Assembly (NCBI GenBank): GCA_963768305.1
Contig: CAVYHE010000008.1
Span: forward strand, 129,576-193,575
Direction of reading: 5' to 3'
DNA: 64,000 nt
Source: an uncultured bacterium
GTDB taxonomy: Bacteria; Margulisbacteria; WOR-1; CAVSGV01
Made by a program: the position numbers and the translations under genes. Shown here piece after piece: positions 8,064 to 53,909 of this stretch (positions are counted from its first letter, which is position 1; every line of letters begins with the position of its first letter). The notes beneath the pieces were generated by a model that was not told the origin of the DNA, made no database searches, and saw only the letters and a list, made by a program, of their open reading frames with translations.

Positions 8064-8092
8064 ATATCGTCAAATTTGAGATGAAATTTCAC
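8064..8092 (-). promoter_or_regulatory. GTGAAAT-N16-CGATAT motif copy 1 (alternative-sigma-like promoter) facing the GH8 gene
   Basis: On the minus strand, GTGAAAT is at 8092-8086, the 16-nt spacer at 8085-8070, and CGATAT at 8069-8064. Confidence 0.5.
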
Positions 8093-8112
8093 TTAACAAC
8101 AGACAGTATTAT

Positions 8113-8121
8113 TGCTATAAT
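8113..8121 (+). promoter_or_regulatory. extended -10 promoter TGcTATAAT (with TTAACA 17 nt upstream), 10 nt before the Zn-ribbon ATG
   Basis: TG at 8113-8114 and TATAAT at 8116-8121, with the ATG at 8132. No SD. Confidence 0.5.
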
Positions 8122-8131
8122 TTCTTTCCTT

Positions 8132-8366
8132 ATGAAATTGAAATGCAGCATATGCGAAAATGAGATCGACATTAAAGAGGGCACAAAGCCCGGGACCAGG
8201 ATAACCTGCCCGAACTGCTTCGCGCAGCTCGCGGTTATATAAGCACAAGGGCAGGCTGATCATCGGCTGCGCCATGTGCAAAGAATCCGTCTTTGATCCG
8301 ACAAATTGCGAAAGATGCGAACGAAGGCGTGAACTGAAGGAACTGATAACGGAAGGGAGGCTGTAA
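8132..8366 (+). pseudogene. double zinc-ribbon protein (four CxxC pairs), frame broken near 8240
   Basis: MKLKCSICENEIDIKEGTKPGTRITCPNCFAQLAV, then a stop. The +1 frame continues YKHKGRLIIGCAMCKESVFDPTNCERCERRRELKELITEGRL and stops at 8364-8366. Confidence 0.5.
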
Positions 8367-8370
8367 TATC

Positions 8371-8881
8371 ATGGAAGACCTTAAAGGATCACTTGGATAC
8401 CGCTCTGGAAATGGAGCGGTCCGGATATGACCTCTACATGAAAGCCGCGAAGAAAACATCCAATCCGCTGGGAAGGTCCACGCTGGAAGCCATTGCCGCG
8501 AAGGAATTGGACCATATAAAAGCCATCAAGGATTTCGCGAAGAAGAATCTGGATAAGGCGATCGTAGACATCAACCCGGCGGACAAAAAGGGCTACATTA
8601 AGCCGATCATGGAAAAGCTGGAAAAATCCCTGGATGAGAATGTGAAGCCGGATTCCGACCTCAATGAGGCATACAAAGCCGCGCTTCAGCTTGAGAAAAG
8701 ATCATATGACCTCTACAAGAGCCTGAAGCAGAAAAGCTCCGGCGACAAGGAAAAGAGATTCTTTGATTTTCTCATGCAAGAGGAGAACATGCATTACGAG
8801 CTCCTGAATGAGACCCTGGAATACCTGGATAATCCGGCTAACTGGTACAGGGAAAAAGAACAGTGGCTGGTGGAATACTAG
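8371..8881 (+). CDS. ferritin-like (rubrerythrin-type diiron four-helix-bundle) domain protein
   Basis: Two E...ExxH half-sites (ALEMERSG...KELDHI and ALQLEKRS...QEENMHY). The ATG at 8371 with GGGAGG upstream is one base out of frame with ORF 8393-8881, so an extra G at 8395-8396 is likely. Confidence 0.65.
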
Positions 8882-8891
8882 GGATCGGTCG

Positions 8892-9366
8892 CTAGGCTTT
8901 TCTTATTGAATCCACGAACCCAGCGACTTTTAAAGTATAATTACCGCTTTTCAGTTCCGCTTCTTTTATGGCCAATGTAGCTACCGGTGACCTGCCGATG
9001 ATCTCTTCCATGCTTTTGAAAGCATTGTCGCTGCCTTTTCCGCCTTCAGAGCAGAAAAAGGACGCGCTGTTCATCTGGTCAATGTTCTGCATGAGGAATG
9101 TCCTTACCGGAGAGCATAAATTCCAGGCCCATATGGGCCCGCCGACAATGATGTGGTCATATGCTCTGATGTCTTTCGATAAATCCTTTATCTTCGTCAA
9201 CAATTTTTTCGACCCGTCCCGGCCGGCGGAGAACCAGCCCAATATTCCAGCCCTGTTCTTTGTGTCGATTATCTCCTCGATGTCGCATTTCAGTGCATTA
9301 GCTATCGCAATGGCGACCCTTTTTGTGTTGCCCGACCTGGAATAATAGACGACCAGGAGTTTTCAT
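8892..9366 (-). CDS. flavodoxin-like protein
   Basis: GGPIWAWNLCSPVRTFL in the ORF. The upstream in-frame sequence reads KLLVVYYSRSGNTKRVAIAIANAL. The ATG at 9366 is 1 nt out of frame, consistent with an indel in the T4/A4 run at 9360-9363. Confidence 0.7.
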
Positions 9367-9437
9367 GATGGAATATATTATACAATATTTTACAATACGC
9401 GCATCATCCATTATAATTGCCTCCGGAGGCGATAAAT

Positions 9438-10067
9438 ATGACAGAAAATGCTGCAAGGGCCCTTTCGATCCTTCGCGACTATTCTCGATTCCAGTGGTAC
9501 GTCATCCCTCTACTTCTGATCGTCCTTTACATATACTCCGTTGAAGTGGAAAGAAGGAATTGGAACGTTCTTTTCGGCGGGCTCGCCTTATGGGGAATGG
9601 ACTGGTTCAATGAGATATGGAACGCGCTCCTCTTCCATTTCAATAAGTTCGCGCCGGCATGGGCAACTCCCGGAGCAACGGCATACAATATATTGATAGG
9701 CCTGAACATAGAGATAACCCTCATGTTCGCCATAATGGGCATTTATGCCTGCAAAATGCTTCCTCCCGGCAAAAAAATGAAGATATTCGGTTTGAACAAC
9801 CGCATATTTTTCGCGGTCCTGAATTCTCTGCTTGCGGTGGGGATAGAGATCATCCTTAACCATATAGGGGCGCTCACATGGGACCTTCCGTGGTGGAACC
9901 TGAAGGCGCCGTGGCTCATATTCCTTATCGGCTACCTGCCTTTCTTCCTCGTCGCTTTCTGGGTGCATGACATGAAAAAGGTGAGCGACAAGGCAAAGAC
10001 CGTCGGGGCGATCCTGGGCTTTGATCTTTTATGCCTCATCGCATTCATTTCTATGAGATGGATCTGA
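9438..10067 (+). CDS. integral membrane protein, function unknown
   Basis: The ATG at 9438 is 8 nt after GGAGG. Several hydrophobic helices are present. Confidence 0.6.
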   Translation: MTENAARALSILRDYSRFQWYVIPLLLIVLYIYSVEVERRNWNVLFGGLALWGMDWFNEIWNALLFHFNKFAPAWATPGATAYNILIGLNIEITLMFAIMGIYACKMLPPGKKMKIFGLNNRIFFAVLNSLLAVGIEIILNHIGALTWDLPWWNLKAPWLIFLIGYLPFFLVAFWVHDMKKVSDKAKTVGAILGFDLLCLIAFISMRWI

Positions 10068-10169
10068 TACGTAAGTAAGGATCATTCTTATAATGAAAAT
10101 TCTCGCTATCGAAATCATTCGGCAGGCTCAGGGCATGATTTGTGAGTTTAAAGAAGTACTGTAATTCGT

Positions 10170-10197
10170 TTGACTATGAAATTTACGGTACTATAAT
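10170..10197 (+). promoter_or_regulatory. sigma70-type promoter TTGACT-16 nt-TATAAT
   Basis: TTGACT at 10170-10175 and TATAAT at 10192-10197, 34 nt upstream of the ATG at 10232. Confidence 0.55.
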
Positions 10198-10231
10198 AAC
10201 CCCACGTTAATCCATTAAGAAGGTATTTAAA

Positions 10232-11261: not shown

Positions 11262-11298
11262 AGCGTAATTAATCAATAGAATATTTTCTGATAAATAC

Positions 11299-11334
11299 AA
11301 GCCCGTATTAATAAACGATGCGGGCTTTTTGTTT
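11299..11334 (+). terminator. rho-independent terminator candidate
   Basis: AAGCCCG (11299-11305), 15-nt loop, CGGGCTT (11321-11327), then TTTGTTT. It lies 38 nt after the corrected stop of the propeller gene. Confidence 0.5.
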
Positions 11335-11362
11335 GCCTGAATTACTGATAAAATGCTCATCT

Positions 11363-12424: not shown

Positions 12425-12431
12425 CAAAAAA

Positions 12432-13416
12432 CTATTTCATGTTGTCGAGAAGGATAGCCATTGAAGCGACCACGTCCTTCGTTTCCGGCTGCATGAACTC
12501 CTCGTACGTGAATATTTTTTTGCCTTTATCGAACGCGGACATAACCTTCGCAGAATAATAACTATCCAGGGTGCTCTTTATCGCGCCCGATAACTGCTTT
12601 TTTACCGTATCCTTCGCCGATTCCATGCTATATGTGTTGAAACAAAGCGCGTAAGTGATGTACTCGTCCGAGGAAGCGTCGATCTTTGAAAGGTGCTTGT
12701 CCGCCTGCTCCTCCATGGCCCCGCGGTTACCGCCGATATCGGCGTAATCGATATCAAAAGCTTTAAGCGCCAGCCCGAGATCGCCCATGCTCTTGTCCAC
12801 CATAGCGATGGTATCCGCCGGCGTGTATATGATGTATCTTTTCCACGCGCTCCCGTTAAGCAAAGCGTACGCCCAGCCCAGCCGGTTGTATGCTTTCGCG
12901 TAATAAAGCGGGTAGTATTGCCCGGGGGAAATGCTCATGCTTTTCTCGGTGGTAAGGTTCGATATTGACGTAAGTACCTCGTTTATACAGTTATCCGCAT
13001 CCTCGTACATTTCAAGCTGCTTGTAAAGCTTTACCACCGAACCTTCTATCGTCCTGTGCGTGAGGATGCCTTTTCTGTAAGCGGAAGCTATCGCGTACGG
13101 CAGAACATCGGCAGCAAGTTTTGGCGAAGTTTCCTTTGAATTTGAGGATCTCCGCCGCTTTTGAGTTGACCAATGAAAGAGCGCCCAGCGCGTTATCGTA
13201 TGCTCCAAGCCTTTCCCTGACAAGTGCTCTCTTGTAAAGCTCCGCGAGATATTTCACGGTGTTATCAGTATTGGTGCCGACCACGAAATCCGTCGCGTTC
13301 GAGCCCAAGGACTTTGAATCCGATTGCGACATGTTCTCGAACGTGGTCGTCAGCTGCTGGCCATAACTCGCCGTTGATAGGAGCAATAATAATATTAAAA
13401 TGTAAACCTTAAGCAT
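12432..13416 (-). CDS. secreted hypothetical protein (frame broken in the T4/A4 run at 13119-13122)
   Basis: Signal peptide MLKVYILILLLLLSTASYGQQ from the ATG at 13416. Removing one A from GCCAAAACTTGC joins ...KGNFAK to LAADVLPYAIASAY of ORF 12432-13223. Confidence 0.6.
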
Positions 13417-13484: not shown

Positions 13485-14015
13485 TTAATCGCTGGGCATG
13501 CGAAGAAATTCCGCATATCTTTTCATGTTTTCCCCCAATTCCGGCATTCTGGCGTTCTTGTTTATCCTGGCGATCTCCTCAGCTTTGAATTTCAAAGCTT
13601 TTGACATTATAGAAGTTTCGGCATCTGATCTTCCAAATTTATCGCAGGAATAAAACCTGTCCACCCAAAAAGTGTAAGTGCTTGCCAATGCCTGCGCGAT
13701 CCGGGAACTTTCATTTGCCAATAAAGGGAAAAGCCTCTTGATCTTTTCATGATTTTCATGAGGGCTTTTATCCTCGCCGATAAGCTTCCAGATTTTGACG
13801 GCCGTCACCCCTTTTATGCGTTTTTCCGATATTAGATCGTTTATCGACCTTAATTGTTCTTTTGCATAAAAGCCTATGCACACGGCTTGTTTCCAGAACG
13901 GGCGTTCCAAGAATCCTTTTCTGAGATCAGAAGTGACCAGCGGATCCTTTGTCAGCATCGCTTTGCGCATCGTCGACATAAAACCCGGTTTTATACTGAT
14001 TTTTTTAACCGCCAT
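13485..14015 (-). CDS. hypothetical protein (176 aa)
   Basis: AAGGAG RBS before the ATG at 14015. Preceded by motif copy at 14091-14063. Confidence 0.55.
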   Translation of the reverse strand: MAVKKISIKPGFMSTMRKAMLTKDPLVTSDLRKGFLERPFWKQAVCIGFYAKEQLRSINDLISEKRIKGVTAVKIWKLIGEDKSPHENHEKIKRLFPLLANESSRIAQALASTYTFWVDRFYSCDKFGRSDAETSIMSKALKFKAEEIARINKNARMPELGENMKRYAEFLRMPSD

Positions 14016-14062: not shown

Positions 14063-14091
14063 TTATCGATATATTTTCGAGAAAATTTCAG
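14063..14091 (-). promoter_or_regulatory. cTGAAAT-N16-CGATAA motif copy facing the 13485-14015 gene
   Basis: On the minus strand, TGAAAT is at 14090-14085, the 16-nt spacer at 14084-14069, and CGATAA at 14068-14063. Confidence 0.5.
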
Positions 14092-14126: not shown

Positions 14127-14657
14127 TTATTCACGGACAAATTCAAACAGATATTCGCTGAGCTGCGGCGTTAACATCTTCCCGTAATTATTCGCGTCGT
14201 TATTGTCCAGGTTAAATCCCTTTGATGTAATATCTGAAGCACATACCGCTTTACTCTTTATCTCTGTTTGGCCCGCTGCTTCTCTCTTCAACAGGACCAG
14301 CCTTACCAGGTACTTATTCAACACTACGATCTTGATCTTTTTGTCCTTCATCGCAACCGGGATATTGCCGACCCCTACCCATCCCGCATGTTTACCGTCC
14401 GCTATGACAAAAACATGGTCCACCTCTTTGTTCGCTATTTTTGATTGCATTTCGAGTTCATTCTTTTTTTGAAAATACATCACTGCGCCGATATCGATCA
14501 TAAAAGAAAGGTAAGCCCCTTCATACTTTTTCCCGACCACCACGGCATCCTGATCCGCGGTCAATTTTTCTTTTTCTGAAGCGGCATTTTCCGCTTTCTT
14601 TGGACTCGATACCTGGGAAAACCGGTTTATCGTCATTAACGAATCTATTGATGACAT
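14127..14657 (-). CDS. hypothetical protein (176 aa from the ATG at 14657)
   Basis: The track start at 14702 would lie 4 nt from the -10-like element, so I prefer the ATG at 14657 (MSSIDSL), which follows AAGAGGA. Confidence 0.5.
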   Translation of the reverse strand: MSSIDSLMTINRFSQVSSPKKAENAASEKEKLTADQDAVVVGKKYEGAYLSFMIDIGAVMYFQKKNELEMQSKIANKEVDHVFVIADGKHAGWVGVGNIPVAMKDKKIKIVVLNKYLVRLVLLKREAAGQTEIKSKAVCASDITSKGFNLDNNDANNYGKMLTPQLSEYLFEFVRE

Positions 14658-14705: not shown

Positions 14706-14734
14706 GTATCGTCACATTTATCTTATAATTTCAC
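14706..14734 (-). promoter_or_regulatory. GTGAAAT-N16-CGATAC motif copy facing the 14127-14657 gene
   Basis: On the minus strand, GTGAAAT is at 14734-14728, the 16-nt spacer at 14727-14712, and CGATAC at 14711-14706. An A8 tract lies upstream. Confidence 0.45.
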
Positions 14735-20748: not shown

Positions 20749-21914
20749 ATGGAAGAGGCAGAGAGACTACAGAAACTACCCACCTACATATTCGCCAAAC
20801 AGGACAAGCTAAAGCGGAGATGAGGAAAAAGGGAGCGGACCTTATCGACCTCGGGCTCGGAAGCCCGGACATCCCTCCGCCGAAAGAAGTCATTGATGAA
20901 ATGATCTCCGCCCTGAAAGACCCCGCCAATCACAGATATCCGCCTTTTGACGGCTCGCATGAATTCATACAGGCGATAATCAACTGGGTTAAACGCCAGT
21001 ACAATGTCCATGTTAATGATGAAGAGGTTGTCCTCTCATCGGCTCAAAAGAAGGCCTGGTACATCTTCAGTTCGCTTATTTGAACCCGGGAGACACAACG
21101 CTTGTCCCGATGCCCGCTTATCCCGCTCATTTCAGGGGCGCGATCCTGGCGGGAGCTGAGCCGGTGGTGCTTCCGACCACTGAAAGGACGGGTTTCCTTC
21201 CGAACCTGAAAATAATCGACGAATCCATCGCGAAGCGCGCAAAGATGCTTTTCCTGTCCTATCCGACAAACCCGACCGGCGCCTGCGTGCCTATAGAATT
21301 TTTCGAGGAAGCGGTCCATTTCGCGAAGAAATACGATCTCATTCTTGTCCACGATTTCGCTTACGCGGAGATATATTTTGACGGAAAGAAGCCGCCAAGC
21401 ATCATGACCGTTCCCGGGCGCAAAGGACGTCGCGATAGAATTCCACACCATGTCAAAGACTTTCGGCATGGCGGGATGGAGATGCGGATTCGCCGTCGGC
21501 AATAGGAATTTTATCGAATCGCTGAGAAAGATAAAGACAAACCTCGATTACGGGATGTTCAATGCGATACAGAAAGCCGCGATAAAAGCGTTAACAATGG
21601 AGAACGGATATATAGATAACGTGAGGGCGACATATCAGAGAAGAAGGGACCTGGTCATAGACCGCCTGAAAGAGCTGGGCTGGAACGTCCCGAAGCCAAA
21701 AGGCGCCATGTACGTGTGGTTGCCCATCCCGAAAGGCTTCAATTCATACGACTGGATGATGTATCTTATGGAAAAAGCCGGCGTCGTCGTCACCCCGGGG
21801 ATCGCTTTCGGCGAGCTTGGGGAAGGATATGCCAGGATATCATTGATAGATTCCGAAGAGAACCTGAATAAGGCTTTCGATCGCATGAAGAAAGCGGGAG
21901 TGAGATATGGATAG
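20749..21914 (+). pseudogene. class I/II pyridoxal-phosphate aminotransferase (AspAT/LL-DAP-AT-like), three frame breaks
   Basis: MEEAERLQKLPTYIFAKQDKLK / MRKKGADLIDLGLGSPD... / SKEGLVHLQFAYLNPGDTTLVPMPAYP... / DVAIEFHTMSKTFGMAGWRCGF... occur in successive frames. The breaks are near 20811, 21037 and 21430. Confidence 0.8.
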
Positions 21915-23745: not shown

Positions 23746-23774
23746 GTGAAATTTTCGGACGAATGTCTCGATAT
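23746..23774 (+). promoter_or_regulatory. GTGAAAT-N16-CGATAT motif copy facing the 23794-24486 gene
   Basis: GTGAAAT at 23746-23752, 16-nt spacer, CGATAT at 23769-23774. An A8 tract lies upstream. The ATG is 19 nt downstream. Confidence 0.5.
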
Positions 23775-23793: not shown

Positions 23794-24486
23794 ATGTTAG
23801 AACTTTACAAAATACCATGTATCACGGGAAAGAACTTTCGAAAAACCGAATTCGTCGGATTTAACAGCGTTCAGGTTGATAAGCTTGCTCTATTAGCAAA
23901 GAAAGGCGTCTTTTTCACAAGATCTGTGCTTTTGGCTTTACGCAACCATCCTAATGCATCTCAAGGGCTAACTGGGTTCCTAAATAAGGCGGTTGAGTGG
24001 CCCACGTTCAGATCAGATGATCTGAATTATGCAGCTAAAAAAACTTTCGGCTCATTCCCATTCCGTTTATCCCAGATACCGGCTTATTGTTTGGATGAAG
24101 GGTTCTTATGCGCCCACAAAAAAGTTAAAACGCTTATTGCTTCTTGGGATGACAGCACGGTACCATATCCAAAGGAGTTGGAAATAAAGCTCACAGGAGA
24201 AATCGGTAACACTGAGCTCGCCGAAAAGATCCTGCCATTATTAAGGATACATGTTCAAGTATGGAGACAAAAATGGGATGATTATCCGGAAACTTCAAGC
24301 TTATATGGGGAGTTTGCAAAAATCTATGTTCATGAAACAATCAATAAAGCTTTAAAGGAAGCTTTGCCAAACTTATCCGCTTATACTCCTCATCATGAAG
24401 GGCCATCAATATTTCAGATCAGTGATACATATACAATAATAGCTGTTGTCAAAAAAGCTCCGTCAACTCCCCATTCAATTTGGTGA
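23794..24486 (+). CDS. hypothetical protein (230 aa)
   Basis: Long ORF with no competing frame and no domain I recognise. Confidence 0.55.
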   Translation: MLELYKIPCITGKNFRKTEFVGFNSVQVDKLALLAKKGVFFTRSVLLALRNHPNASQGLTGFLNKAVEWPTFRSDDLNYAAKKTFGSFPFRLSQIPAYCLDEGFLCAHKKVKTLIASWDDSTVPYPKELEIKLTGEIGNTELAEKILPLLRIHVQVWRQKWDDYPETSSLYGEFAKIYVHETINKALKEALPNLSAYTPHHEGPSIFQISDTYTIIAVVKKAPSTPHSIW

Positions 24487-36901: not shown

Positions 36902-36930
36902 GTGAAATTTTTACTTATTTTTGACGAAGT
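36902..36930 (+). promoter_or_regulatory. GTGAAAT-N16-CGAAGT motif copy (weakest -10) upstream of the uORF/HExxH gene
   Basis: GTGAAAT at 36902-36908, 16-nt spacer, CGAAGT at 36925-36930. An A6 tract lies upstream. Confidence 0.35.
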
Positions 36931-37120
36931 AAATATGTAATGAGCGACTGATCGGCATATAAGTGATTGAATAATCAAAAGGAGGACATTGTGACAATAA
37001 TAACAAAATATCCTGCGGCGTCTTAATAAGTTAATTGACCATGTTTCCCAAAAGTTCAATAAACCTTTTAAAATCATCGCCACGAGGATCTTAGGCGACT
37101 CCGAAGCAGGGTTATCTTTA

Positions 37121-38128
37121 GTGGAACGTCATAAAAAATATGATGTTATTCCCATATATTTGTCTCAAGTTCCAAATTATGTGAACAACAATAACGATCT
37201 TACTCCTTTAGGCGAGCATCTCGCCGCGCATGAAATAGGCCATTTCATGGTTTATAACGAAGGCTATGGAAAAATGAACATAAATATGCTTGGAATGGAT
37301 CCAGACGCGTTAAATAATCTCGGAAAAGATCTTGCTAATATTGTTCCTTTATTGTTGCCTGGATATTTTAGCGGGATATTCAATTTTGCTTCTCATTTGA
37401 TCGTAAACAACAGGCTTGCGGCGTATGGTTATGACGCATCAGGAGAAATGTATAATGTTTTATATGACAAAAACATCAATAGCCTCCGGGAAACACTGTC
37501 TGAACAACAAATGGACGCCTTTGGAGCACGTTATGAGATAAATCTGCGTGACAATCCGGATGCAGCAAGGATACTGTTCTTTGAAGGGACCAGGATGTTG
37601 TCCGAAATGTATCTTTTTCTGCCTCAACCTTATAAGGGTGAACTGTTGGAAAGTGTAGGCGAGTTCTGGAAGAATCAGGTAATAAGCTTGCTTAAGGAAA
37701 CTGAAACCGATTTAGATCGATCCAGGTTATATAGCCCCGAATTTAATAAATATTATTCACCAGAAAGATATCAGCAAACAATTATAAAAATGTTCCTATG
37801 GATCGGGGGCAAGGCAGAATACGTTTTTCCGGTAGCCAAACCTCATGACGAATATGAAAAGGGATTGATCCGTGAGAGCAAGCAATGTTATGAAAATGGC
37901 GATATTATTTCAGCGTACTATAAATTGTGCCAGGTAAACGATATTGACGTGTCAAAAGAATTTGAAATAGTGGAGGATGCATTGTGGGCGGAAGCATTCA
38001 AAAATATTGGCCAGCGTAACACGCAAGCGGCCGCCTCATTAATCCTGGAAACATTGGTTGGGAATGGCATGGCTGATGCGGCAATGATATTAAGAGAAAG
38101 ATTGGAACAACTGCAAAAAAGCAAATAA
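37121..38128 (+). CDS. hypothetical protein with an HExxH motif (possible zinc metallopeptidase)
   Basis: LAAHEIGHFMVYNEG. GTG start. Nothing else recognisable. Confidence 0.5.
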   Translation: MERHKKYDVIPIYLSQVPNYVNNNNDLTPLGEHLAAHEIGHFMVYNEGYGKMNINMLGMDPDALNNLGKDLANIVPLLLPGYFSGIFNFASHLIVNNRLAAYGYDASGEMYNVLYDKNINSLRETLSEQQMDAFGARYEINLRDNPDAARILFFEGTRMLSEMYLFLPQPYKGELLESVGEFWKNQVISLLKETETDLDRSRLYSPEFNKYYSPERYQQTIIKMFLWIGGKAEYVFPVAKPHDEYEKGLIRESKQCYENGDIISAYYKLCQVNDIDVSKEFEIVEDALWAEAFKNIGQRNTQAAASLILETLVGNGMADAAMILRERLEQLQKSK

Positions 38129-39616: not shown

Positions 39617-41441
39617 ATGTGCGGCATTTTCGGATATATCGGCAATAAAGAATGCATCTCCCTTTTGATGGAAGGGCTGAAGAAGCTTGAGTACAGGGGA
39701 TATGATTCCGCGGGCATTTCGGTCATCGACAACGATAAACTGATAACCGAAAAATGCGCCGGAAAAATATCCGAACTCGAAAAGCAACTTGACGGGAACT
39801 CCATCAAAAGCCATATCGGCATCGCGCATACCAGATGGGCGACACACGGAAGGCCATCCGACGAAAACAGCCACCCCCACACCGACTGCAAAGATGAAAT
39901 CGCGGTTGTCCATAACGGGATCATAGAAAATTATCTGCAGTTAAGGCGCGAGCTTTCCGCTGACGGGCATGTTTTCAAGTCGACCACTGATACTGAAGTC
40001 ATAGCGCATCTGATCGAAAAGTATTTTAAAGGGAACCTGGAAGAAGCTGTCAGGAAAGCAATAGCAGAGCTTGTCGGCTCTTTTGCTATTGCTGTCATCT
40101 CAAGCCGCGAACCCGAAAAGATAATAGCCGCAAAGCAGGGAAGCCCGCTTAAGATAGGGCTCGGTGACGGCGAAGTTTTCATCGCTTCCGACATCCCCGC
40201 GCTCATCAAATATACCGGGAAGGTCATTTTCATGGGCGAGCAGGAAATGGCCGTGGTAACAAAGAACGATGTGAAGGTGACCGATTTCGCCGGCAACCCC
40301 ATCAAAAAGGAAGTGACCCTTGTTTCCTGGGACCCGGTATCGGCGGAAAAAGGCGGATATTCCCACTTCATGCTGAAGGAGATACACGAACAGCCCAGGG
40401 CTATCAAGGACACGATAGCCGACAGAATAAAGGACGGAAAGATCCACTTTGATGAGCTTGATATGGATGATAAGGAACTGAGCAGGATAAACCGGGTGGT
40501 TTTCACTGCCTGCGGGACAAGCTGGCACGCCGGGCTTGATAGGCGAATATCTGATAGAACAGTTCGTGAAAATCCCGTGCGAGGTGGAATACGCCGCGGA
40601 GTTCAGGTACAGGCATCCTGTTGTGGATGAAAAGACACTTGTCATCGCCATAAGCCAGTCGGGAGAAACTGCGGATACCATGGGCGCCGTATGGGAAGCA
40701 AAATCAAGGGGTGCAAAGGTAATATCCATATGTAACGTTGAAGGAAGCTCGATCGCCAGGGAAAGCGACGGAGTAATGTATACCTATGCGGGGCCTGAAA
40801 TAGGCGTCGCTTCCACAAAAGCGTTCACCACCCAGATAGTCGTGCTTTATCTGTTCTCGCTTATGCTCGGCGTCATAAAGGGCAGCATCTCGCAGGCGGA
40901 AGCCGAAAAGATGATCAATGACCTGTACGAGCTGCCGCTGAAGGTGGAAATGATACTTTCCGCTGAGGACAAGGTCGAAAAATTGAGTGAAAAGCTCTAC
41001 AAGAACACGAACGCTCTTTATCTTGGCCGCGGCAAAGGCTTTCCGATAGCTCTTGAAGGCGCGTTGAAGATGAAGGAAGTATCATATATCCACGCGGAAG
41101 GATATCCCGCGGCGGAAATGAAGCACGGCCCTATCGCGCTGATAGACAAGAACATGCTTGTTGTCGTGCTTGCCCTGAGAGGCCGCAGGTATGAAAAAAT
41201 ACTCGGCAACATAGAAGAGGTAAAGGCGAGGGGCGGGTACGTGGTAGCGATCGCGGTGGACGGCGACGAGGAAATAAAGGAAAAAGCCGACGACATACTA
41301 TATATACCGCATACGACCGAATCACTATCCCCTATCCTGGCGGTCATCCCTCTTCAATTGCTGGCGTATTACATTGCGATAAAAAGAGGCTGCCACGTGG
41401 ACCAGCCTAGGAACCTCGCGAAGAGCGTGACCGTGGAGTGA
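39617..41441 (+). pseudogene. glmS: glutamine--fructose-6-phosphate aminotransferase, frame break near 40538
   Basis: MCGIFGYIG...ACGTSWHAGL, then a +1 shift to IGEYLIEQFVKIPCEVEYAAEFRY...SQSGETADT...KSVTVE. Confidence 0.9.
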
Positions 41442-43036
41442 TTCGAACCGGATTTCTCCCCCGCATAAGTTATCCTGTTAGCCAGATCGATAAAATTTTC
41501 CCTGCACTTTTTTGCGAAATCCTCGGGATAATGGCCCACTATCCAGCGATCCTGTTTTTCACACCATCCGGCGGGACTGGACGGTACAACAGGTAAAAAG
41601 CTGTAGAGCATCTTTTGTCCTGTCCCTTTCGCGCCGAACCTTCCTGATATTTCATATGCAGTGATCATTGAGGCGCCGACCTTTTCCAGTATCTTTAGTG
41701 CCGAAAGTATCGCTTTATCCAGCAGTTCCCGCGTTTCTGCATCCGCCTCAAGGATGTTCCCTGCATTGTTCACCAGTATCTGAAGCTCCCACGGGGACCT
41801 TTGGGCTTTTGGCACGAACAATGTCACGCCGTTCCTGTCGTAAATGAACAGATTGTTGGATCTTTCCGCAACTCCGTCCAGCCTTTTATTCGCTCTTAAA
41901 GCGCTGACATAGTCATCAAAGAAATTATGGCCCGTTTCCTGCCTGTATTCGAGGCAAAATTTCGCGACATCATCGCCTTGCACATGGGTCGGCAGTTTAT
42001 CTAACGGCTCTTCATTTTTCCCGTCCTGGAAGACCGTAACTGAGGACGGAATTAACGCATACTGCTGGTGAACCTGCTGGTGGGATGCATGGAGTTTATG
42101 TCCCGAAAGTGAATAATCATAACCGAAGTTCTGTCCCCATATCGACGCGTTGAAATTGAGGGTGCTGAGGTCCCTTTTAAGTATCTCGGTCCTGAGAAAT
42201 TCGAGCTCTTTGGTCGTGAGCTGCCTTTTAGCCGGAACATCCGGGATCTCAAGTTTTTGCGCGAGCTGCACATATATTCTCTGATAATACAAATGTCGCA
42301 ATCCCTTGATATCTGAAAGTGTCAGATCGCCAGCCTTGTAACGGATGGAATTATGCGCCATATTCGCTGCATAGTGCCCCCAGGGAATGTAGCTGTTGCC
42401 TCTTAAATATTCAAAAATATTTGTTTCTCCTTCGGTATAGTCACCCATTATCTCACTGGGCCCCTGGGCGCCGGGATCAAGGACCATTATTCTTTTAAAC
42501 TCATCGGGAAGAAAAGAATTATTGGCAAGAACTTCGAAAAGATCCTTCTGGATTATATCCCTGACCGGTTCGCCTTTTTTTTCTATATATGCTATCCCAA
42601 CCGGACTTCCGGCTGCGTCATTCTCAAAAACACAGGACAGGTTTGCGAGCTCGGCAAGCGCGGCAGGATCACGGGAGGCTTGACCAAAAGCCAGCGTTAT
42701 CGGATCTGATAGGCTCTTGATATCGATTTGAGCAGCATCTTGACTTATTGGTTTTTGTTTAAATTTCGGATCATCCGCATTCGATTTTAGTATGAACGTG
42801 CTACCCATGAACGGAAAAGCGTTCGGCACCTCGAACACCCATCCTTTTGACTTGGAAACTTCGTCTTCGGGAAAATTATTGAAATATTTATCGTCATGAT
42901 TGGTGATTTCTATGTCGCCGAAATGTCCAAGCACTTTTTCATGTTTTTTTGCCCTTAGGTTAACCACTTTATAGTCAGGCTTGTGGATCCCGTATCTGAA
43001 ATTCCCGGACTCAGAAACACATGTTCGTAAATTCAC
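41369..43036 (-). CDS. hypothetical protein (555 aa as sequenced)
   Basis: Long unambiguous ORF, third gene of a three-gene operon. The 3' end overlaps the glmS stop by 73 nt, so its end is uncertain. Confidence 0.6.
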   Translation of the reverse strand: MNLRTCVSESGNFRYGIHKPDYKVVNLRAKKHEKVLGHFGDIEITNHDDKYFNNFPEDEVSKSKGWVFEVPNAFPFMGSTFILKSNADDPKFKQKPISQDAAQIDIKSLSDPITLAFGQASRDPAALAELANLSCVFENDAAGSPVGIAYIEKKGEPVRDIIQKDLFEVLANNSFLPDEFKRIMVLDPGAQGPSEIMGDYTEGETNIFEYLRGNSYIPWGHYAANMAHNSIRYKAGDLTLSDIKGLRHLYYQRIYVQLAQKLEIPDVPAKRQLTTKELEFLRTEILKRDLSTLNFNASIWGQNFGYDYSLSGHKLHASHQQVHQQYALIPSSVTVFQDGKNEEPLDKLPTHVQGDDVAKFCLEYRQETGHNFFDDYVSALRANKRLDGVAERSNNLFIYDRNGVTLFVPKAQRSPWELQILVNNAGNILEADAETRELLDKAILSALKILEKVGASMITAYEISGRFGAKGTGQKMLYSFLPVVPSSPAGWCEKQDRWIVGHYPEDFAKKCRENFIDLANRITYAGEKSGSNHSTVTLFARFLGWSTWQPLFIAM

Positions 43037-43067
43037 GAAATACTCCTTCCTTTATATCTTCAAAATA

Positions 43068-43943
43068 TCAATATAGCTTCACCGCGTCCGGAATCTTGCA
43101 TCCTTCGATCAACTTTTCAATGTCTATTACCGCCATCCTTACCCCTTCTTCGCTGTCGTGTAATTCTCCTCCGCCGGGGTTGATGGAAATTGTGCCTGAC
43201 GGCATCCTTGCATAAGCCCTGCTAAAATCATATATTTTCTTATCCTTCACAAATGGGACCGAATGGACATGCCCCGTCACATGGACAATTGGATTTAAAG
43301 CTTGAATAAAACTGAACATCGAATGTGTTCCATGGTTTCTTCCGCCCACGGCATCCACAAATCCATACGCCGGCTGATGCGTAAGCAATATGATCTTTTT
43401 CCTCTGCTCATCTATCCAATCGCTGGTCTCATCAAGTAAACCGGAAAGGATTTCCGATTGTTCCTCGCTGGAAATGACTCCCTTATACCATGGATTAAAA
43501 TTCAGGATATTCCCTCTGTCTCGATTATCCGGCTGGATCGAACCAACGCCAATGAAAGAATAACCGGAATGATGGAATATTTCGCCTGATTTTAACGCGA
43601 ACAGCCCCGGGAATTTTTCTTTGTTTTGCCTTAAATATTCAAAAGAGATAACATCCGCATTCCCGTTGATCGTTATCACGGGTTTCCTGCCGGCCGCGTC
43701 CAATATCTTCGGCATGCCTTCTTCTGCCGACCTTCTGCTAAAGTCCGTTCTTTCATATATCTCAGCCGGTGTAGCCCGACCTTTGATCAATGCGTCCCAA
43801 TGTGTCCTTTCAAGCCCAAAAGTATCCCCGCCGAACGCGAACGCGTTCACTTGGCCTCTTACTGCCTTCATTTTTAATGTAAGGCTCTTTAACCTTTCTG
43901 CATGGGGCAAGTGAATATCCGTCACATACGCTAGCCTGAACAT
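43068..43943 (-). CDS. metallophosphoesterase (calcineurin-like)
   Basis: VTDIHL, FGGDTF, NGNAD, LLTHQP and VTGHVH motifs in canonical order. Confidence 0.8.
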   Translation of the reverse strand: MFRLAYVTDIHLPHAERLKSLTLKMKAVRGQVNAFAFGGDTFGLERTHWDALIKGRATPAEIYERTDFSRRSAEEGMPKILDAAGRKPVITINGNADVISFEYLRQNKEKFPGLFALKSGEIFHHSGYSFIGVGSIQPDNRDRGNILNFNPWYKGVISSEEQSEILSGLLDETSDWIDEQRKKIILLTHQPAYGFVDAVGGRNHGTHSMFSFIQALNPIVHVTGHVHSVPFVKDKKIYDFSRAYARMPSGTISINPGGGELHDSEEGVRMAVIDIEKLIEGCKIPDAVKLY

Positions 43944-43956
43944 TATTTTCTCCTTT

Positions 43957-44631
43957 TCAATTCCAATCTTTCAATCTTGCCAACTCAAAAAGGCGGACGC
44001 CGCTATTGAAAAGCCGCGAAGAAGAACTTTGATAATCCGTTATATTGCTGAAAAGATTTTGACGGGCGCAACAGTTCCCCTTATCTCCCGATTCAATTTC
44101 CGCCAATTCAAAAAGATCGAGCGTTTCTATCTTCCCGCTGGCCCGGATCTGCTTAAGCATGTTCAATTTTGGAACAAATATATTCCTGCCTGTTTCGCCG
44201 CTCATCCATGACGAATATCGCCTCGCATCATAAATGGTCAAGCAGGGCATGCTCTTATCCAGGTTTGCTGTGTCATGCATGAAAGCCTTAATTCTGTTTT
44301 CTAAATCGCCAAGCTCCCGCATTACGGATCTGGTATCGTTCAAAAACCGCAGGAATTGCCTTACGGTGATCGGCCTTTTCATCGCCGATAAAGGCATATG
44401 CATAGTATTTACAAATTCCGGGAATTGGACCCTGCTTGCCGTAAAGTCAAAATTTTTGGCCCTTTTATGTGTTCTTTCATGAACCAGCATATTTACTACA
44501 TCGGTAGCCCGCATGATCTCCCCTGATTTTTCAGATCTACATTCAACCCCTAATTGGTGGTATCTGGTATGTGGATCTCTTAAAAGTTGCTCATGTACGG
44601 ACAATCTTGATCTTAACCTGTTTATATTCAT
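43957..44631 (-). CDS. hypothetical protein (224 aa)
   Basis: GGAGAA RBS before the ATG at 44631. Preceded by motif copy at 44694-44665. Confidence 0.55.
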   Translation of the reverse strand: MNINRLRSRLSVHEQLLRDPHTRYHQLGVECRSEKSGEIMRATDVVNMLVHERTHKRAKNFDFTASRVQFPEFVNTMHMPLSAMKRPITVRQFLRFLNDTRSVMRELGDLENRIKAFMHDTANLDKSMPCLTIYDARRYSSWMSGETGRNIFVPKLNMLKQIRASGKIETLDLFELAEIESGDKGNCCARQNLFSNITDYQSSSSRLFNSGVRLFELARLKDWN

Positions 44632-44664: not shown

Positions 44665-44694
44665 ATATCGTCAAATTTGCCCTGGAAATTTCAC
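44665..44694 (-). promoter_or_regulatory. GTGAAAT-N17-CGATAT motif copy facing the 224-aa/phosphoesterase/555-aa operon
   Basis: On the minus strand, GTGAAAT is at 44694-44688, the 17-nt spacer at 44687-44671, and CGATAT at 44670-44665. Confidence 0.5.
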
Positions 44695-44912
44695 TGAAAT
44701 CGAATTCCGGGAATTGAGAGGTTTGAAAATCCAATGACCTCCGAACCAGATCCCCCGCCGGTTGTACCTGCTTTTTTCCCGGCTGCCACCCGATAAATAT
44801 ATGACTTTTGCTTATCCTCAACCTCACGCGGATCAGTAGCAATATTTTGAGGTTTTCTTTGCCCTTGAGCCAAAAACGCATTGCAATTCATCCGGGTTCC
44901 ATTCATTCTCAC
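44691..44912 (-). CDS. small hypothetical protein (73 aa)
   Basis: GGAGG lies 9 nt before the GTG at 44912. Its own motif-type promoter is at 44978-44950. Confidence 0.5.
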   Translation of the reverse strand: MRMNGTRMNCNAFLAQGQRKPQNIATDPREVEDKQKSYIYRVAAGKKAGTTGGGSGSEVIGFSNLSIPGIRFQ

Positions 44913-44949: not shown

Positions 44950-44978
44950 TTATCGTTATATCCTGGCTGAAATTTCAT
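44950..44978 (-). promoter_or_regulatory. aTGAAAT-N16-CGATAA motif copy facing the 73-aa ORF
   Basis: On the minus strand, TGAAAT is at 44977-44972, the 16-nt spacer at 44971-44956, and CGATAA at 44955-44950. Confidence 0.5.
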
Positions 44979-50235: not shown

Positions 50236-50248
50236 AAAGGGGAATTTA

Positions 50249-52603
50249 GTGAAATACGGATATTTTGACAACAAGGAAAAGGAGTACGTGATAACCCGCC
50301 CCGATACCCCGCTTCCGTGGATAAATTACCTCGGCTGCGAGGATTACTGCGCCCTGATGTCGAACACGGCCGGGGGATACAGTTTTTACAGGGACGCGAA
50401 AGAGAGGCGCATCACCCGCTACAGGTATAACAATATACCCATGGACAGGGGCGGAAGATACCTATACGTCAGGGACAATAAGTCAAAGGATTATTGGTCC
50501 GTTTCCTGGCAGCCTGTCCTGAAAGACACATCAAAATATAAATATGAATGCCGGCACGGCCTCGGCTACACTCAGATCACTTCTGTTTATTCGGGGATAA
50601 GGACAAAGACGACATATTTTGTTCCGCTGGGAGAAGACCTGGAAGTCTGGATGACGGAAATAAAGAACGAAACAAAGAAGGCAAGGAACATAACGGTGAC
50701 ATCGTTCGTGGAATTCTGCCTGTGGGACGCGCTTAACGACATGACCGATTATCAGTACAACCTGAACATAGGCGAGACCGTATTCAAGGATAACATCGTT
50801 TACCATCTATCGCGCTACAGGGTTGAGAAAAAATATTTCGCCTATCACGCATGCACGAACGCGAAAGCCGACAGCTTTGACAGCGACAGGACGGCCTTCC
50901 TTGGAAATTACGGCTCCCTCGCCTGCCCTGCCGCTGTTATAAGAGGCAAAGGTTCGAATTCTATAGCCAGCGGATGGGCGCCGATCGGAAGCGAATTCAT
51001 CAATGTAAAGCTGAAGCCCGGGGAATCAAAGACGCTTATTTTTATTCTTGGCTACAGCGAAAAAAAAGATGATATTCCCCGCATCATGAAAAAGTTCAAG
51101 AATGAATCTTCCATATTGGCCGAGTTGACCTCGCTTAAGAAATACTGGAACGAAAACCTGAGCAAATTCACAGCTGATACGGAAGATCCCGATGTCAACT
51201 CGATGGTGAACATCTGGAACCAGTATCAGGCGCGCACCACTTTCAATTGGTCGCGCTCCGCGTCGTATTATGAATCGGGCATCGGCAGAGGCATGGGATT
51301 CCGTGATTCAAATCAGGACACTCTGGGCTTTGTCCATCAAATACCGGAAAAAGTAAAATCAAGGATCGTGGACCTGGCAAGCACGCAGTTCGATGAAGGG
51401 AACGCCCTGCATCAATATTCCCCGCTGACAAAGAAAGCGATAAGCAACGAGAAGAATTACAGCGACGACCACCTGTGGTTGATATTTTCCGTCGCGAGCT
51501 ATATCAAGGAAACCGGCGAGATCGATTTTCTCGATAAGCAGGTGCCGTTCGCAAGCGGGAAGGAAGCGCCGTTATACGAGCACCTGGCAAAAGCAATGGA
51601 TTACACGATGAACAACCTGGGCCCTCACGGGCTTCCATTGATGTTCTTCGCGGACTGGAACGACTGCCTTAATCTGGGCGGGAGCAAGAACAAGGCGGAA
51701 TCCGTAATGGTGGCGCAAATGCTGGTAGCCGCAGCGGCTGAGATGTCTCGGCTTGCCAAAATATCAGGCAGAAAAGAGGACATTGCGAAATATTCCGCCA
51801 TCGCTGAAAAGATGAAAGCATCGATCAACCAGCGGGCATGGGACGGCAGCTGGTACCTGAGGGGTTTCACCGATGACATGGAACCGGTGGGCTCTTCCAA
51901 GAACAAGGAAGGCCAGATATACCTGGAAACGCAGCCGTGGGCGGTAATATCCGGCTCTGCCGATATGGAGCGGGCGAAAAAATGCATGGATTCGGTGAAG
52001 AAATATCTTGCGACGGATTACGGGATAATGATATTGACGCCGCCGTATTCGCAGTTCCATCACGAGCTTGGCTCCATTTCCATATATCCTCCGGGGCTGA
52101 AAGAGAACGGCGCGATATTCTGCCATCCGAACCCATGGGCGATGATAGCGGAGTGCATCCTTGGGCGCGGGAACCAGGCGTTCGAATATTACAAGGCGAT
52201 ACTTCCGGCAACAAAGAACAACATTCCCGATATTCACAAGGTGGAACCGTACATTTACTGCCAGATGATAGCGGGAAGCGACCACAAGAATTTTGGCGAA
52301 GGAAAGAACAGCTGGCTGACGGGGACAGCTGCGTGGAATTTTGTCGCCGTATCTCAGTGGATCCTCGGCATCCGCCCTGATCACGACGGGCTGATATTGG
52401 ATCCCTGCATTCCTTCAAAATGGAAAGGATTTTCGGTAAGGCGATACTTCAGGGGAAGCCATTATTTCATAACCGTGAGGAACCCAAAGCATGTTTCAAA
52501 AGGCGTCGCGAAAATGACGATCGACGGAAAACCGCATCAGGGGAACCTTATTCCTGACTTCAAGGATAAAAAGGACCACAACGTGGAAATAGAGCTTGGG
52601 TGA
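50249..52603 (+). CDS. GH94 glycoside phosphorylase (cellobiose/chitobiose phosphorylase family)
   Basis: MKYGYFDNKEKEYVITRPDTPLPWINYLG, RGMGFRDSNQDTLG and FADWNDCLN motifs. Confidence 0.85.
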   Translation: MKYGYFDNKEKEYVITRPDTPLPWINYLGCEDYCALMSNTAGGYSFYRDAKERRITRYRYNNIPMDRGGRYLYVRDNKSKDYWSVSWQPVLKDTSKYKYECRHGLGYTQITSVYSGIRTKTTYFVPLGEDLEVWMTEIKNETKKARNITVTSFVEFCLWDALNDMTDYQYNLNIGETVFKDNIVYHLSRYRVEKKYFAYHACTNAKADSFDSDRTAFLGNYGSLACPAAVIRGKGSNSIASGWAPIGSEFINVKLKPGESKTLIFILGYSEKKDDIPRIMKKFKNESSILAELTSLKKYWNENLSKFTADTEDPDVNSMVNIWNQYQARTTFNWSRSASYYESGIGRGMGFRDSNQDTLGFVHQIPEKVKSRIVDLASTQFDEGNALHQYSPLTKKAISNEKNYSDDHLWLIFSVASYIKETGEIDFLDKQVPFASGKEAPLYEHLAKAMDYTMNNLGPHGLPLMFFADWNDCLNLGGSKNKAESVMVAQMLVAAAAEMSRLAKISGRKEDIAKYSAIAEKMKASINQRAWDGSWYLRGFTDDMEPVGSSKNKEGQIYLETQPWAVISGSADMERAKKCMDSVKKYLATDYGIMILTPPYSQFHHELGSISIYPPGLKENGAIFCHPNPWAMIAECILGRGNQAFEYYKAILPATKNNIPDIHKVEPYIYCQMIAGSDHKNFGEGKNSWLTGTAAWNFVAVSQWILGIRPDHDGLILDPCIPSKWKGFSVRRYFRGSHYFITVRNPKHVSKGVAKMTIDGKPHQGNLIPDFKDKKDHNVEIELG

Positions 52604-52645
52604 TTAAACCCTAAGTTATCAGTTATGAGTTAAGAGTTGTGAGTT

Positions 52646-53509
52646 CTATGCCCCTAATTTCGTTGTTATCGCTGCCCCGAAACCGATGGTCAGCACAAGC
52701 ATTTTAACTATCGGACCTACGATAGGAATAATGTCGATAAGGAAGAGGATGAATATCCCCCAAATGGCTTCAATAAGCATAGGCTGATTGGGCTTCTTCA
52801 GCGCCTTGGTTACCTTCTTTCCGATCAGCTGGGCAACGGCGATATATCCGAGTGTCATGGCTATTGAGATAAGCAGCATTTCAATGAATATGAGCGGTAT
52901 GCCGATCAATGTTATCGCCAGAAGAAGCGCGACCGGAAGAATGAGGATCAGGCCGAGTATCCCCCATAAAAGCGCATTGAGCCAATTCCTCTCCACGCAG
53001 GATGAAATATTCCCGACCCGTGCGGTAAAGAAAGCGATCGTGAGCATCGCCAGTCCGATGAAGCCGATCGTTATGATCACCTTGAAGAAAAGGATCCCCG
53101 AAAAACACATCCACAAATACGAGCCGACCAGATTATCCATTTCGCCTGCCTCCTTCGTCATATTACCTTCTTTACTTACAAGCGCGATCATGTTCGTTCT
53201 GCCGGCTATTACCGCGCCCCTGTCCTTTATTATCCTGCCGCCGATGGCAGCAACATTGCCGCCGACTTTCGCGGTCGGGAAAAGATGGACATCCCCGAGG
53301 ACGGCCACGACATCGCCGTTCACGTTCCCCTTTACGTTGACATTGCCTCTTATCGCGACAAGGTCATTTAGGGTCATGCCCTGCCCCATGTTTATGTTCT
53401 CGTTGACCTTTACGACGGACGACTCTTTTGCGATGACTTTCGCATGTACAGCCGAAGCAGTGGAGATGAAAATGAACGCGGCAAGCACCAGAACAAAGAA
53501 TTTCTTCAT
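52646..53509 (-). CDS. membrane protein with bactofilin-like beta-helix repeats fused to a polytopic TM domain
   Basis: Signal peptide, then GNVNVKGNVNGDVVAVLGDVHLFPTAKVGGNVAAIGGRII repeats, then about five hydrophobic helices. Confidence 0.5.
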   Translation of the reverse strand: MKKFFVLVLAAFIFISTASAVHAKVIAKESSVVKVNENINMGQGMTLNDLVAIRGNVNVKGNVNGDVVAVLGDVHLFPTAKVGGNVAAIGGRIIKDRGAVIAGRTNMIALVSKEGNMTKEAGEMDNLVGSYLWMCFSGILFFKVIITIGFIGLAMLTIAFFTARVGNISSCVERNWLNALLWGILGLILILPVALLLAITLIGIPLIFIEMLLISIAMTLGYIAVAQLIGKKVTKALKKPNQPMLIEAIWGIFILFLIDIIPIVGPIVKMLVLTIGFGAAITTKLGA

Positions 53510-53585
53510 CTGTTTTCCCCCTCTTTCTTTCCCCTCAAAAAAACAAGAAGATTATATGCCTGACAAGGATTATTTCAAGCGGATT

Positions 53586-53825
53586 TTATCTTCTTTTACG
53601 CCTTGACCTGCCAAGCCAGTGCCTTGTGATGCTTATTTCCGTCTCTTCAGAAGACTTGAAGACCGCCGTCAGCATGAGTTCCAGCCCGATTATGATGACA
53701 AAGATAGGCCAGATATATTTCCACGAGGAGCCGGATATTATTTCGAGCGACTGAAGCATTAGGACCACGCCCGCCAATAGAACGGTGATCCCCCAGACGA
53801 ACCTGCGTATTGATGTCGGCGTCAT
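53586..53825 (-). CDS. small membrane protein (LiaF/DUF5668-like TM pair)
   Basis: Two TM helices and a basic C-terminus. GAGGGGGG RBS. Confidence 0.5.
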   Translation of the reverse strand: MTPTSIRRFVWGITVLLAGVVLMLQSLEIISGSSWKYIWPIFVIIIGLELMLTAVFKSSEETEISITRHWLGRSRRKRR

Positions 53826-53880
53826 TACAGCACCCCCCTCTTAGGCCACATATGATAACACAAAAATCTTAAAAGAAAAT

Positions 53881-53909
53881 GTGAAATTTTCGCTGAAAAG
53901 TATCGATAA
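53881..53909 (+). promoter_or_regulatory. GTGAAAT-N16-CGATAA motif copy with no downstream ORF
   Basis: GTGAAAT at 53881-53887, 16-nt spacer, CGATAA at 53904-53909. Confidence 0.5.

Follow-up and report, generated by a model that had tools for sequence, protein, structure and literature searches.

A 64-kb stretch of DNA from an uncultured bacterium (part of contig CAVYHE010000008.1; "the window" below means this whole stretch) carries eight oriented copies of a bipartite motif, TGAAAT-N16-CGATA(T/A), in its intergenic regions. We think it probable that these copies serve as the promoters of a single alternative-sigma regulon, whose reader would most likely be a divergent sigma factor of the FliA/WhiG (sigma-28) type that has taken on an expanded role. 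What was observed directly is the motif itself, with its statistics, position and conservation and the lineage that carries it, and we describe this before turning to the factor that might read it.

A search of both strands of the window for TGAAAT-N16-CGA returned eight matches, against 1.37 expected from dinucleotide-preserving shuffles, and none of 100 such shuffles reached eight. Seven of these matches, at 8067-8091(-), 14066-14090(-), 14709-14733(-), 23747-23771(+), 36903-36927(+), 44953-44977(-) and 53882-53906(+), are sites named in an earlier reading of the same DNA (the original prediction), which had described eight oriented copies with a 16-nt spacer in seven. The remaining match, 8133-8157(+), lies within a lysW-like open reading frame (ORF), lacks the flanking consensus and was set aside as a chance occurrence. 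The eighth predicted copy has a 17-nt spacer and was recovered with the corresponding N17 pattern at 44668-44693(-), together with one chance match inside a gene at 41629. Both the number of copies and the spacing are thus as described. A bipartite weight matrix built from the eight sites scored them at 27.1-34.5 bits, a test that is circular for these sites themselves; the next best position on either strand reached 14.8 bits, within the range seen in shuffled sequence (11-20.8). Given this clean gap, there is no grey zone of weaker copies or half-matches in the window. All eight copies fall within the approximately 7% of the window that is non-coding, in agreement with their predicted intergenic location.

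Reading the sites side by side also bore out the predicted A-tracts and the variant -10 element, CGAAGT, of copy 5; a CGAAAT-type variant like it occurs at two positions in related contigs (L220 13765 and L117 1818). From 19 further sites that were not chosen by the pattern we obtained the extended consensus aaAagTGAAATTTyc-N4-aaat-n-Tg-n-CGATAtAtAta, in which an A-tract is followed by GTGAAATTT(T/C), by an A-rich patch that lies about 5-8 nt ahead of the -10 element, by (G/T)(A/T)CGATA(T/A)AT and by a final AT-rich stretch. The CGATA core is present at seven of the eight window sites (the eighth has CGAAG) and at 16 of the 19 independent sites, 18 of which have CGA, one CTGAT and none CGT. 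The -35 element ends in AAT at every site (8/8 in the window, 19/19 independent), and the two bases directly before CGA in the window copies are GA, AT, CT or AA. Counted from GAAA, whose first base is G and not T, to nnCGATAw, the spacing is exactly N15, or N16 at one site, and the conserved block is GTGAAATTT.

An alternative is that the copies are remnants of a dispersed repeat or mobile element, or that they arose by chance in AT-rich intergenic DNA. The motif is indeed AT-rich and intergenic, and a 17-base version of it gave about 10 matches in an IMG/VR control scan, which is about chance level. Against this, spacers and flanks differ among the copies and only about 25 positions are common to them, the shuffles never attain the observed count, and the motif is kept at orthologous positions, where it points at genes (see below). 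Dispersal as a repeat, which the original prediction had raised against itself, is already contradicted, and we consider this explanation extremely improbable.

Table 1. Motif copies, their predicted targets and related features in the window and in loci of relatives (L numbers)
Feature	Position	Strand	Remarks
Promoter copy 1	8064..8092	-	aagTGAAATTTC-N-GACGATATAT; matrix score 34.5; predicted to drive GH8; back-to-back with lysW sigma-70 promoter
GH8 glycoside hydrolase	6742..8013	-	423 aa from GTG 8013; Pfam Glyco_hydro_8, 6.9e-20; target of copy 1
Promoter copy 2	14063..14091	-	predicted to drive 176-aa protein A; kept in L001 at 9881(+)
176-aa protein A	13485..14015	-	lineage-restricted multi-copy all-helical family; no known domain (Pfam, NCBIfam)
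Promoter copy 3	14706..14734	-	predicted to drive 176-aa protein B; divergent from gatCAB sigma-70 promoter
176-aa protein B	14127..14657	-	sequence unrelated to protein A; no known domain (Pfam, NCBIfam)
Promoter copy 4	23746..23774	+	predicted to drive 230-aa protein inserted between ksgA and mdh
230-aa protein	23794..24486	+	no known domain (Pfam, NCBIfam)
Promoter copy 5	36902..36930	+	-10 variant CGAAGT; predicted to drive HExxH protein
HExxH protein	36991..38128	+	no Pfam or NCBIfam match; annotated GTG 37121 lacks a Shine-Dalgarno sequence
Promoter copy 6	44665..44694	-	17-nt spacer; score 32.2; predicted to drive three-gene operon
Three-gene operon	41369..44631	-	224-aa protein 43957-44631; metallophosphoesterase 43068-43943 (Pfam Metallophos); 555-aa protein 41369-43036
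Promoter copy 7	44950..44978	-	predicted to drive 73-aa ORF; tandem with copy 6; divergent from sigma-70 promoter of 1037-aa gene
73-aa ORF	44691..44912	-	good Shine-Dalgarno sequence; homology search found none
Promoter copy 8	53881..53909	+	no ORF downstream
Candidate small non-coding RNA	53916..54046	+	about 130 nt; 5' hairpin 53917-53970; long hairpin and T7 run 53976-54046; from fold and terminator scan
Tandem small-protein arrays	L220 6795-8094, 13845-14860; L221 6277-7967, 12829-14063; L001 414-914, 10001-10426		
Compact flagellar cluster with embedded FliA-like sigma	L216 5753-16401; L218/L219 4010-16174; L222 4093-16222; L117 144-8525		

The position of the copies relative to gene starts is regular (Table 1). 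At six sites 19-50 nt separate the -10 element from a start codon preceded by a Shine-Dalgarno (SD) sequence, and at copy 5 (36903) about 60 nt separate it from GTG 36991, which has the SD sequence AAGGAGG. The statement that the motif precedes only hypothetical genes has to be amended, as the targets include GH8, a metallophosphoesterase and a protein with a GalT fold. Among the other genes of the window, 7 of 13 unit starts have a sigma-70 promoter scoring at least 10/12 (six with a perfect TATAAT, one with TAGAAT), versus 0 of 7 motif-preceded units. Textbook examples are TTAACA-17-TATAAT at lysW, TTGACC-17-TATAAT at mdh, TTGAAA-16-TATAAT at a 287-aa gene and TTGACA-17-TAGAAT upstream of the unit ending at 6571; by eye, TATAAT-type -10 elements are also present at gatC (TTGTATAAT) and purC (TCCTATAAT). 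In four cases (lysW, gatC, the 1037-aa gene and a 79-aa gene) a divergent housekeeping unit has its sigma-70 promoter back-to-back with a motif copy.

These data bear on the idea that the motif is the operator of a DNA-binding regulator overlapping ordinary sigma-70 promoters. Sites 8091 and 44977 contain the perfect palindrome TGAAATTTCA, and weak 9/12 sigma-70-like matches lie near five of the seven motif-driven genes. Most copies, however, read TGAAATTTT(C) and are not palindromic, no symmetry links the second half-site, CGATA, to the first, the spacing is fixed at 16 nt, and the orientation always follows that of the gene. Together with the lack of any sigma-70 match of 10/12 or better at the motif units, this makes an operator very improbable.

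The nearest named relatives of the window's GatB, at 64-68% identity, come from Candidatus Margulisiibacteriota, Candidatus Saganbacteria and candidate division WOR-1, and further relatives reach 77-91%; by sequence, the window is assigned to Margulisiibacteriota (Saganbacteria/WOR-1 group). Its gene content (gatCAB, a LysW-type lysine pathway, class I fumarase, radical-SAM enzymes, GH42, GH94 and a sugar ABC transporter) would fit an anaerobic sugar fermenter. L001, a syntenic ENA contig about 91-95% identical to the window in coding DNA, keeps the motif upstream of its protein A orthologue (9881+) and in the ksgA-mdh slot (299+), where it drives a paralogue of the protein A family, while sequence upstream of the motif is unalignable. 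Two other relatives, L220 and L221 (GatB identity 78% and 77%), are more informative. Their small genes beside gatC belong to the paralogous family of protein A and each has the motif; when the intergenic region divergent from gatC is aligned three ways, conservation is confined to two islands, the gatC -10 region and the motif. Between purC and lysW stand different glycoside hydrolases, GH8 in the window (6742-8131), GH26 in L220 (224-2027) and GH16 in L174 (5-1800), each preceded by the motif and divergent from the lysW operon. An orthologue of the 555-aa protein (P0006 in L082, 57% identity) stands alone in another neighbourhood, with TGAAAT-N16-CGATAT 35 nt before its start. Tandem arrays of paralogues from two lineage-restricted families (that of protein A, found beside gatC in L001, L220 and L221, and one of ~160-178 aa) include several copies with a motif of their own.

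We counted sites at a matrix score of at least 22. The window (64 kb) has 8 sites, or 12.5 per 100 kb. Relatives fetched by protein, without use of the motif (48.7 kb), also have 8, or 16 per 100 kb; they are partly syntenic with the window, so these counts are not independent genome samples. As a negative control we used 80 Desulfobacterota loci obtained with the 555-aa protein as query against species-representative genomes, a search in which the matches listed were all from Desulfobacterota, at no more than 52% identity. These loci (1015 kb) have 0 sites, or 0 per 100 kb, and the 555-aa homologues in them have varied sigma-70-like upstream regions unrelated to that of the window.

Outside these loci, the pattern RTGAAATTTY-N13-CGATAWAT matched at least 120 metagenome stretches which, among the matches listed, to which the following counts also apply, are concentrated in a few sediment-type sample series. 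Positions left free by the pattern are non-random: the 6 nt upstream are A-rich, G is favoured two bases before CGAT, and a purine-G step, perhaps a hint of the transcription start, is enriched 11-12 nt after CGATAW, followed by SD-like purines. Among the 64 intergenic matches G is the commonest base at -2 (29/64) and C at -1 a minority (15/64). Many of the matched contigs hold further matrix sites outside the pattern selection, and several carry orthologues of window housekeeping genes and are therefore relatives. For matches with at least 300 nt on either side, an SD-preceded ORF start lay no more than 150 nt downstream in 51 of 99 cases, versus 28 of 99 in the reverse orientation (Fisher p = 0.0013), a comparison diluted by chance matches and divergent promoters. 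This downstream bias, the conservation upstream of orthologues and paralogues, the absence of strong sigma-70 promoters and the empty Desulfobacterota control all support the separate promoter class, served by an alternative sigma factor, that was originally proposed.

The original prediction left the type of sigma factor between an extracytoplasmic function (ECF) factor and sigma-28/SigD. Sigma-28 promoters have the form TAAA-N15-GCCGATAA, that is, TAAA-N15-GCCGATA(A/T); the consensus is TAAAGTTT-N11-GCCGATAA for FliA of E. coli and Salmonella, and TAAA-N15-GCCGATAT for SigD of B. subtilis. The window motif resembles such class-3 promoters in its -10 core CGATA(A/T), in the distance from the AAA of the -35 element to that core (N15 to the 8-mer) and in the T-rich run after the -35 element, and a gene for a sigma of the cognate type lies among flagellar genes in relatives of the window. 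We favour sigma-28 over ECF because the -35 element ends in T, the -10 element is CGAT, no sigma/anti-sigma pair was found behind any copy, and in a relative a FliA/WhiG-type gene shares a contig with the motif.

An ECF reader would be a SigW-type (group 4) factor recognising TGAAAC-N16-CGTA and controlling an envelope-stress or similar regulon. The six-base -35 element beginning TGAAA, the 16-nt spacer and the -10 element beginning with CG all match, and several metagenome targets resemble lipoproteins or membrane proteins by eye. Yet the hallmark AAC is absent, its otherwise invariant C being T here at every site, and the -10 element is CGAT and not CGT(A/C). Autoregulation is the rule for ECF operons, but none of the copies was found to have a sigma or anti-sigma gene downstream, in a search that was based on RpoD (and hence weak for ECF factors), covered fragments and considered the 25 leading families. 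The density of about one site per 6-8 kb also implies hundreds of promoters, far above typical ECF regulons. We therefore regard an ECF factor as unlikely, and the sigma-28 half of the earlier alternative as the one that the data favour.

A candidate for the sigma-28-type reader comes from relatives. When every ORF of the fetched loci was searched on the basis of RpoD, two loci gave matches, L117 and L131. In L117 a 236-aa sigma factor lies on the same contig as a top-scoring motif (32.5 bits). It matches the FliA_WhiG model (TIGR02479) end to end at 8.6e-39, and its best relatives of solved structure are WhiG, the best, and FliA. It has 414 homologues at E < 1e-10; the 120 listed are 65-97% identical and their source names are FliA or sigma-28, in Saganbacteria, Margulisbacteria and WOR-1, which is the phylum of the window. 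The gene is embedded in a compact flagellar cluster in the order flgF-flgG-flgA-flgH-flgI-small ORF-sigma-flgB-flgC-fliE-fliF-fliG-fliH-fliI-fliJ; the full run was seen in L216 and L218, and the part from sigma to fliJ in L117. In all four of the cluster loci that were examined FliG is short, at 149-172 aa, and has just the N and M domains; genes for hook, filament, stator, C-ring or export gate are absent from these 20-kb loci. Upstream of the cluster are a weak FliK-like protein and a short FlhB-C-like protein; the former suggests that a hook may exist, and we do not claim a reduced flagellum.

Motif-driven hypothetical genes stand directly beside or inside the flagellar cluster in L216 and L117. 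The sigma factors of these two loci are 97% identical, and comparison of L117 655-2473 with L216 15903-16401 reveals a two-gene insertion between fliI and fliJ, which encodes hypothetical proteins of 364 and 206 aa on the opposite strand, the first with a top-scoring motif and the second with a CGAAAT-variant motif.

Several observations weigh against a sigma-28-type reader. There is no sigma gene in the window, as had been noted originally and as the RpoD-based search of the window ORFs bears out. The L117 sigma scores 133.6 bits, below the NCBIfam trusted cut-off of 189.6. The -35 element is TGAAAT, within GTGAAAT and behind an upstream A-tract, rather than the (C)TAAA of sigma-28, and the GC before CGATAA of classical sigma-28 promoters is not conserved, (G/T)(A/T/C) standing in its place. 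The spacing TGAAAT-N16-CG fits SigW-type ECF promoters equally well. Two other loci with the sigma cluster, L218 and L222 (L219 is the same region as L218), which come from other members of the phylum, have 0 motifs in 20 kb of mostly housekeeping genes. Sigma and motif occur on the same contigs in one species-level group (L117 and L216). Finally, neither the window targets nor 44 downstream proteins of metagenome sites were found to include a flagellin, a motor or chemotaxis protein or FlgM, as judged from the 25 leading families of a Pfam scan sampling ~0.8 Mb of fragments.

The last two points would be expected if the motif were the promoter class of some other alternative sigma, either a group-3 factor with no relation to FliA or one that has escaped recognition, with the FliA-like gene serving flagellar genes only. 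In that case the lack of late flagellar genes among the sampled targets and the motif-free sigma clusters follow naturally, and it is true that the link between sigma and motif consists of geometry, co-occurrence at the level of the phylum and one contig group. A CGATA core combined with N15 geometry is, however, the hallmark of the sigma-28 family, and no other family is known to have both; moreover the FliA-like sigma is strongly conserved in the phylum, as expected of a factor with many targets. Overall another sigma factor seems improbable, somewhat more so than an ECF factor.

If a divergent FliA/WhiG-type factor is indeed the reader, we infer from sequence the following mechanism. RNA polymerase carrying this non-housekeeping sigma would bind the A-tract and GTGAAATTT at about -35 and (G/T)nCGATA(T/A) at about -10, and transcription would begin ~7-8 nt after CGATAT, giving very short leaders with little beyond the ribosome-binding site. 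The factor would be the one encoded in the phylum's flagellar basal-body cluster, and its regulon would have grown far beyond flagellar genes to include single genes inserted between housekeeping operons, lineage-specific small proteins in tandem arrays, the slot with its changing glycoside hydrolases, an operon of nucleotide-sugar type and at least one small RNA.

Predicted targets in the window are GH8, the two unrelated 176-aa proteins, the 230-aa protein, the HExxH protein, the 73-aa ORF and the operon of the 224-aa protein, metallophosphoesterase and 555-aa protein. Most of the 44 downstream proteins of metagenome sites have no Pfam domain; the domains found among them include HEAT, TPR and pentapeptide repeats, Ser/Thr kinase, GGDEF, GH16, SLH and PKD. 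Some families of small proteins, several in number, are met repeatedly downstream of the motif in separate contigs. Searches of the motif-selected loci with a B. subtilis flagellin and with the flagellar proteins of L117 turned up no additional flagellar genes, and no flagellin was found in any of the fetched loci.

Copy 8, for which we agree with the original prediction that no ORF lies downstream, may drive a small non-coding RNA. Over 77 nt, window positions 53973-54048 share 91% identity with L193 4920-4995, a segment that likewise comes directly after a motif (4884+); the flanks diverge, there is no common reading frame, and the window has an extra 55-nt 5' hairpin. The region has no Rfam match, and no Rfam family or tRNA was found in the window as a whole.

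A further-reaching idea, which we put forward tentatively and hold to be possible but doubtful, is that the divergent sigma-28 in the compact basal-body/export-ATPase cluster (with short FliG in four loci) is a phylum-wide global regulator of hundreds of fast-evolving lineage-specific genes, among them tandem small proteins, repeat proteins, a eukaryote-like kinase, interchangeable glycoside hydrolases and small RNAs. Their expression could then be gated by a flagellar-type export checkpoint, and some of the products might be exported through that apparatus.

There is a precedent for such an expansion. In Bdellovibrio bacteriovorus the experimentally mapped FliA motif TTAAG-N16-CCGATA is present in 92 of 140 attack-phase promoters, and FliA is a global attack-phase regulator whose regulon includes flagellar genes and small RNAs with the motif in their promoters (PMC3627812). 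The spacing is the same as that described here, and in both cases the target set is large, mostly non-flagellar, rich in uncharacterised proteins and inclusive of small RNAs. The two differ in that start sites and phase-specific expression were measured in Bdellovibrio, whereas the present system is known from sequence alone, belongs to another phylum (a sibling lineage of Cyanobacteria), has another -35 element and has shown no flagellar targets. Streptomyces WhiG and Chlamydia sigma-28 are likewise FliA/WhiG-family factors that serve a developmental or late-gene programme and not motility. Their known regulons are small, whereas the site density here implies hundreds of promoters, and here the sigma gene lies inside a basal-body cluster. 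Our literature search found nothing on promoters, sigma factors or motility in Margulisiibacteriota or Saganbacteria, and nothing on Termititenax flagella.

Margulisiibacteriota and Saganbacteria, a sibling lineage of the Cyanobacteria, have no cultured members and are known only through metagenomes. A motif as sharply defined as this one offers a handle, from sequence, on a co-regulated set of perhaps a tenth of the transcription units; it groups hundreds of hypothetical proteins into one programme, predicts a sigma-promoter pair and can improve the annotation of gene starts and small RNAs in these genomes. Should the sigma-28 assignment be true, Bdellovibrio would be joined by a second, independent example of a flagellar sigma factor taken over for global control.

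At copy 5 the original prediction placed the motif before an upstream ORF (uORF) and the HExxH gene. The motif and the downstream gene are there; the "uORF" (36991-37026, 11 codons), however, overlaps a frame that runs stop-free into the HExxH ORF, and is probably the true N-terminus of the HExxH protein, split by a one-base assembly indel. We read it in this way because the frame is continuous, GTG 37121 has no SD sequence and other one-base indels are evident relative to L001. A riboswitch-type leader of the HExxH gene was considered and rejected, the leader being unstructured (z = +1.8). The indels in question are isolated single-base differences that split a pyridine-nucleotide oxidoreductase gene and an aminotransferase gene in the window as compared with L001, and they are probably assembly errors rather than signs of pseudogenes. 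Sites of single-base indels or split genes in the window are 19185, 20750-21035, ~40536-40630, 13012-13223 and 37004-37024. A 263/148-aa gene pair of the window corresponds to a single 327-aa gene in L001; the window glmS, for which there was no comparison sequence, is likewise in two parts. The extra base in the 17-nt spacer of copy 6 could be a further assembly indel.

As to the individual targets, GH8 also matches a BcsZ-like model at 2.7e-14, far below the cut-off, and has no hydrophobic N-terminal signal peptide by eye. Protein A has only 3 homologues among 5.8 billion proteins searched, and its structure model is of low confidence (predicted local distance difference test, pLDDT, 52.6). 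The 224-aa protein and a 335-aa protein have no Pfam or NCBIfam match. For the 555-aa protein a model of moderate confidence (pLDDT 65.6) matches the folds of GalT-type uridylyltransferases and ADP-glucose phosphorylase, members of the HIT superfamily (Foldseek E 9e-7), and on this model the protein is a GalT/HIT-fold nucleotidyltransferase-like protein. Its family has no Pfam domain, contains an invariant S-H-Q-x-x-H-x-Q stretch and is widespread in Desulfobacterota, with at least 548 stretches confirmed by tblastn (loci L002-L081 were examined). In the Desulfobacterales loci L034, L035, L040, L041 and L074 a different upstream element, CTTGTTTTTATGAAAAATTTC(A/G)ATAAAAAT, lies ~100-130 nt before the 555-aa homologue.

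Two large ORFs occupy the end of the window beyond copy 8. The 743-aa ORF (61604-63835, -) has no Pfam domain. The 2382-aa ORF (54098-61246, -) has a weak relative in L113; the candidate small RNA, encoded on the other strand, stops shortly before the 3' end of this ORF.

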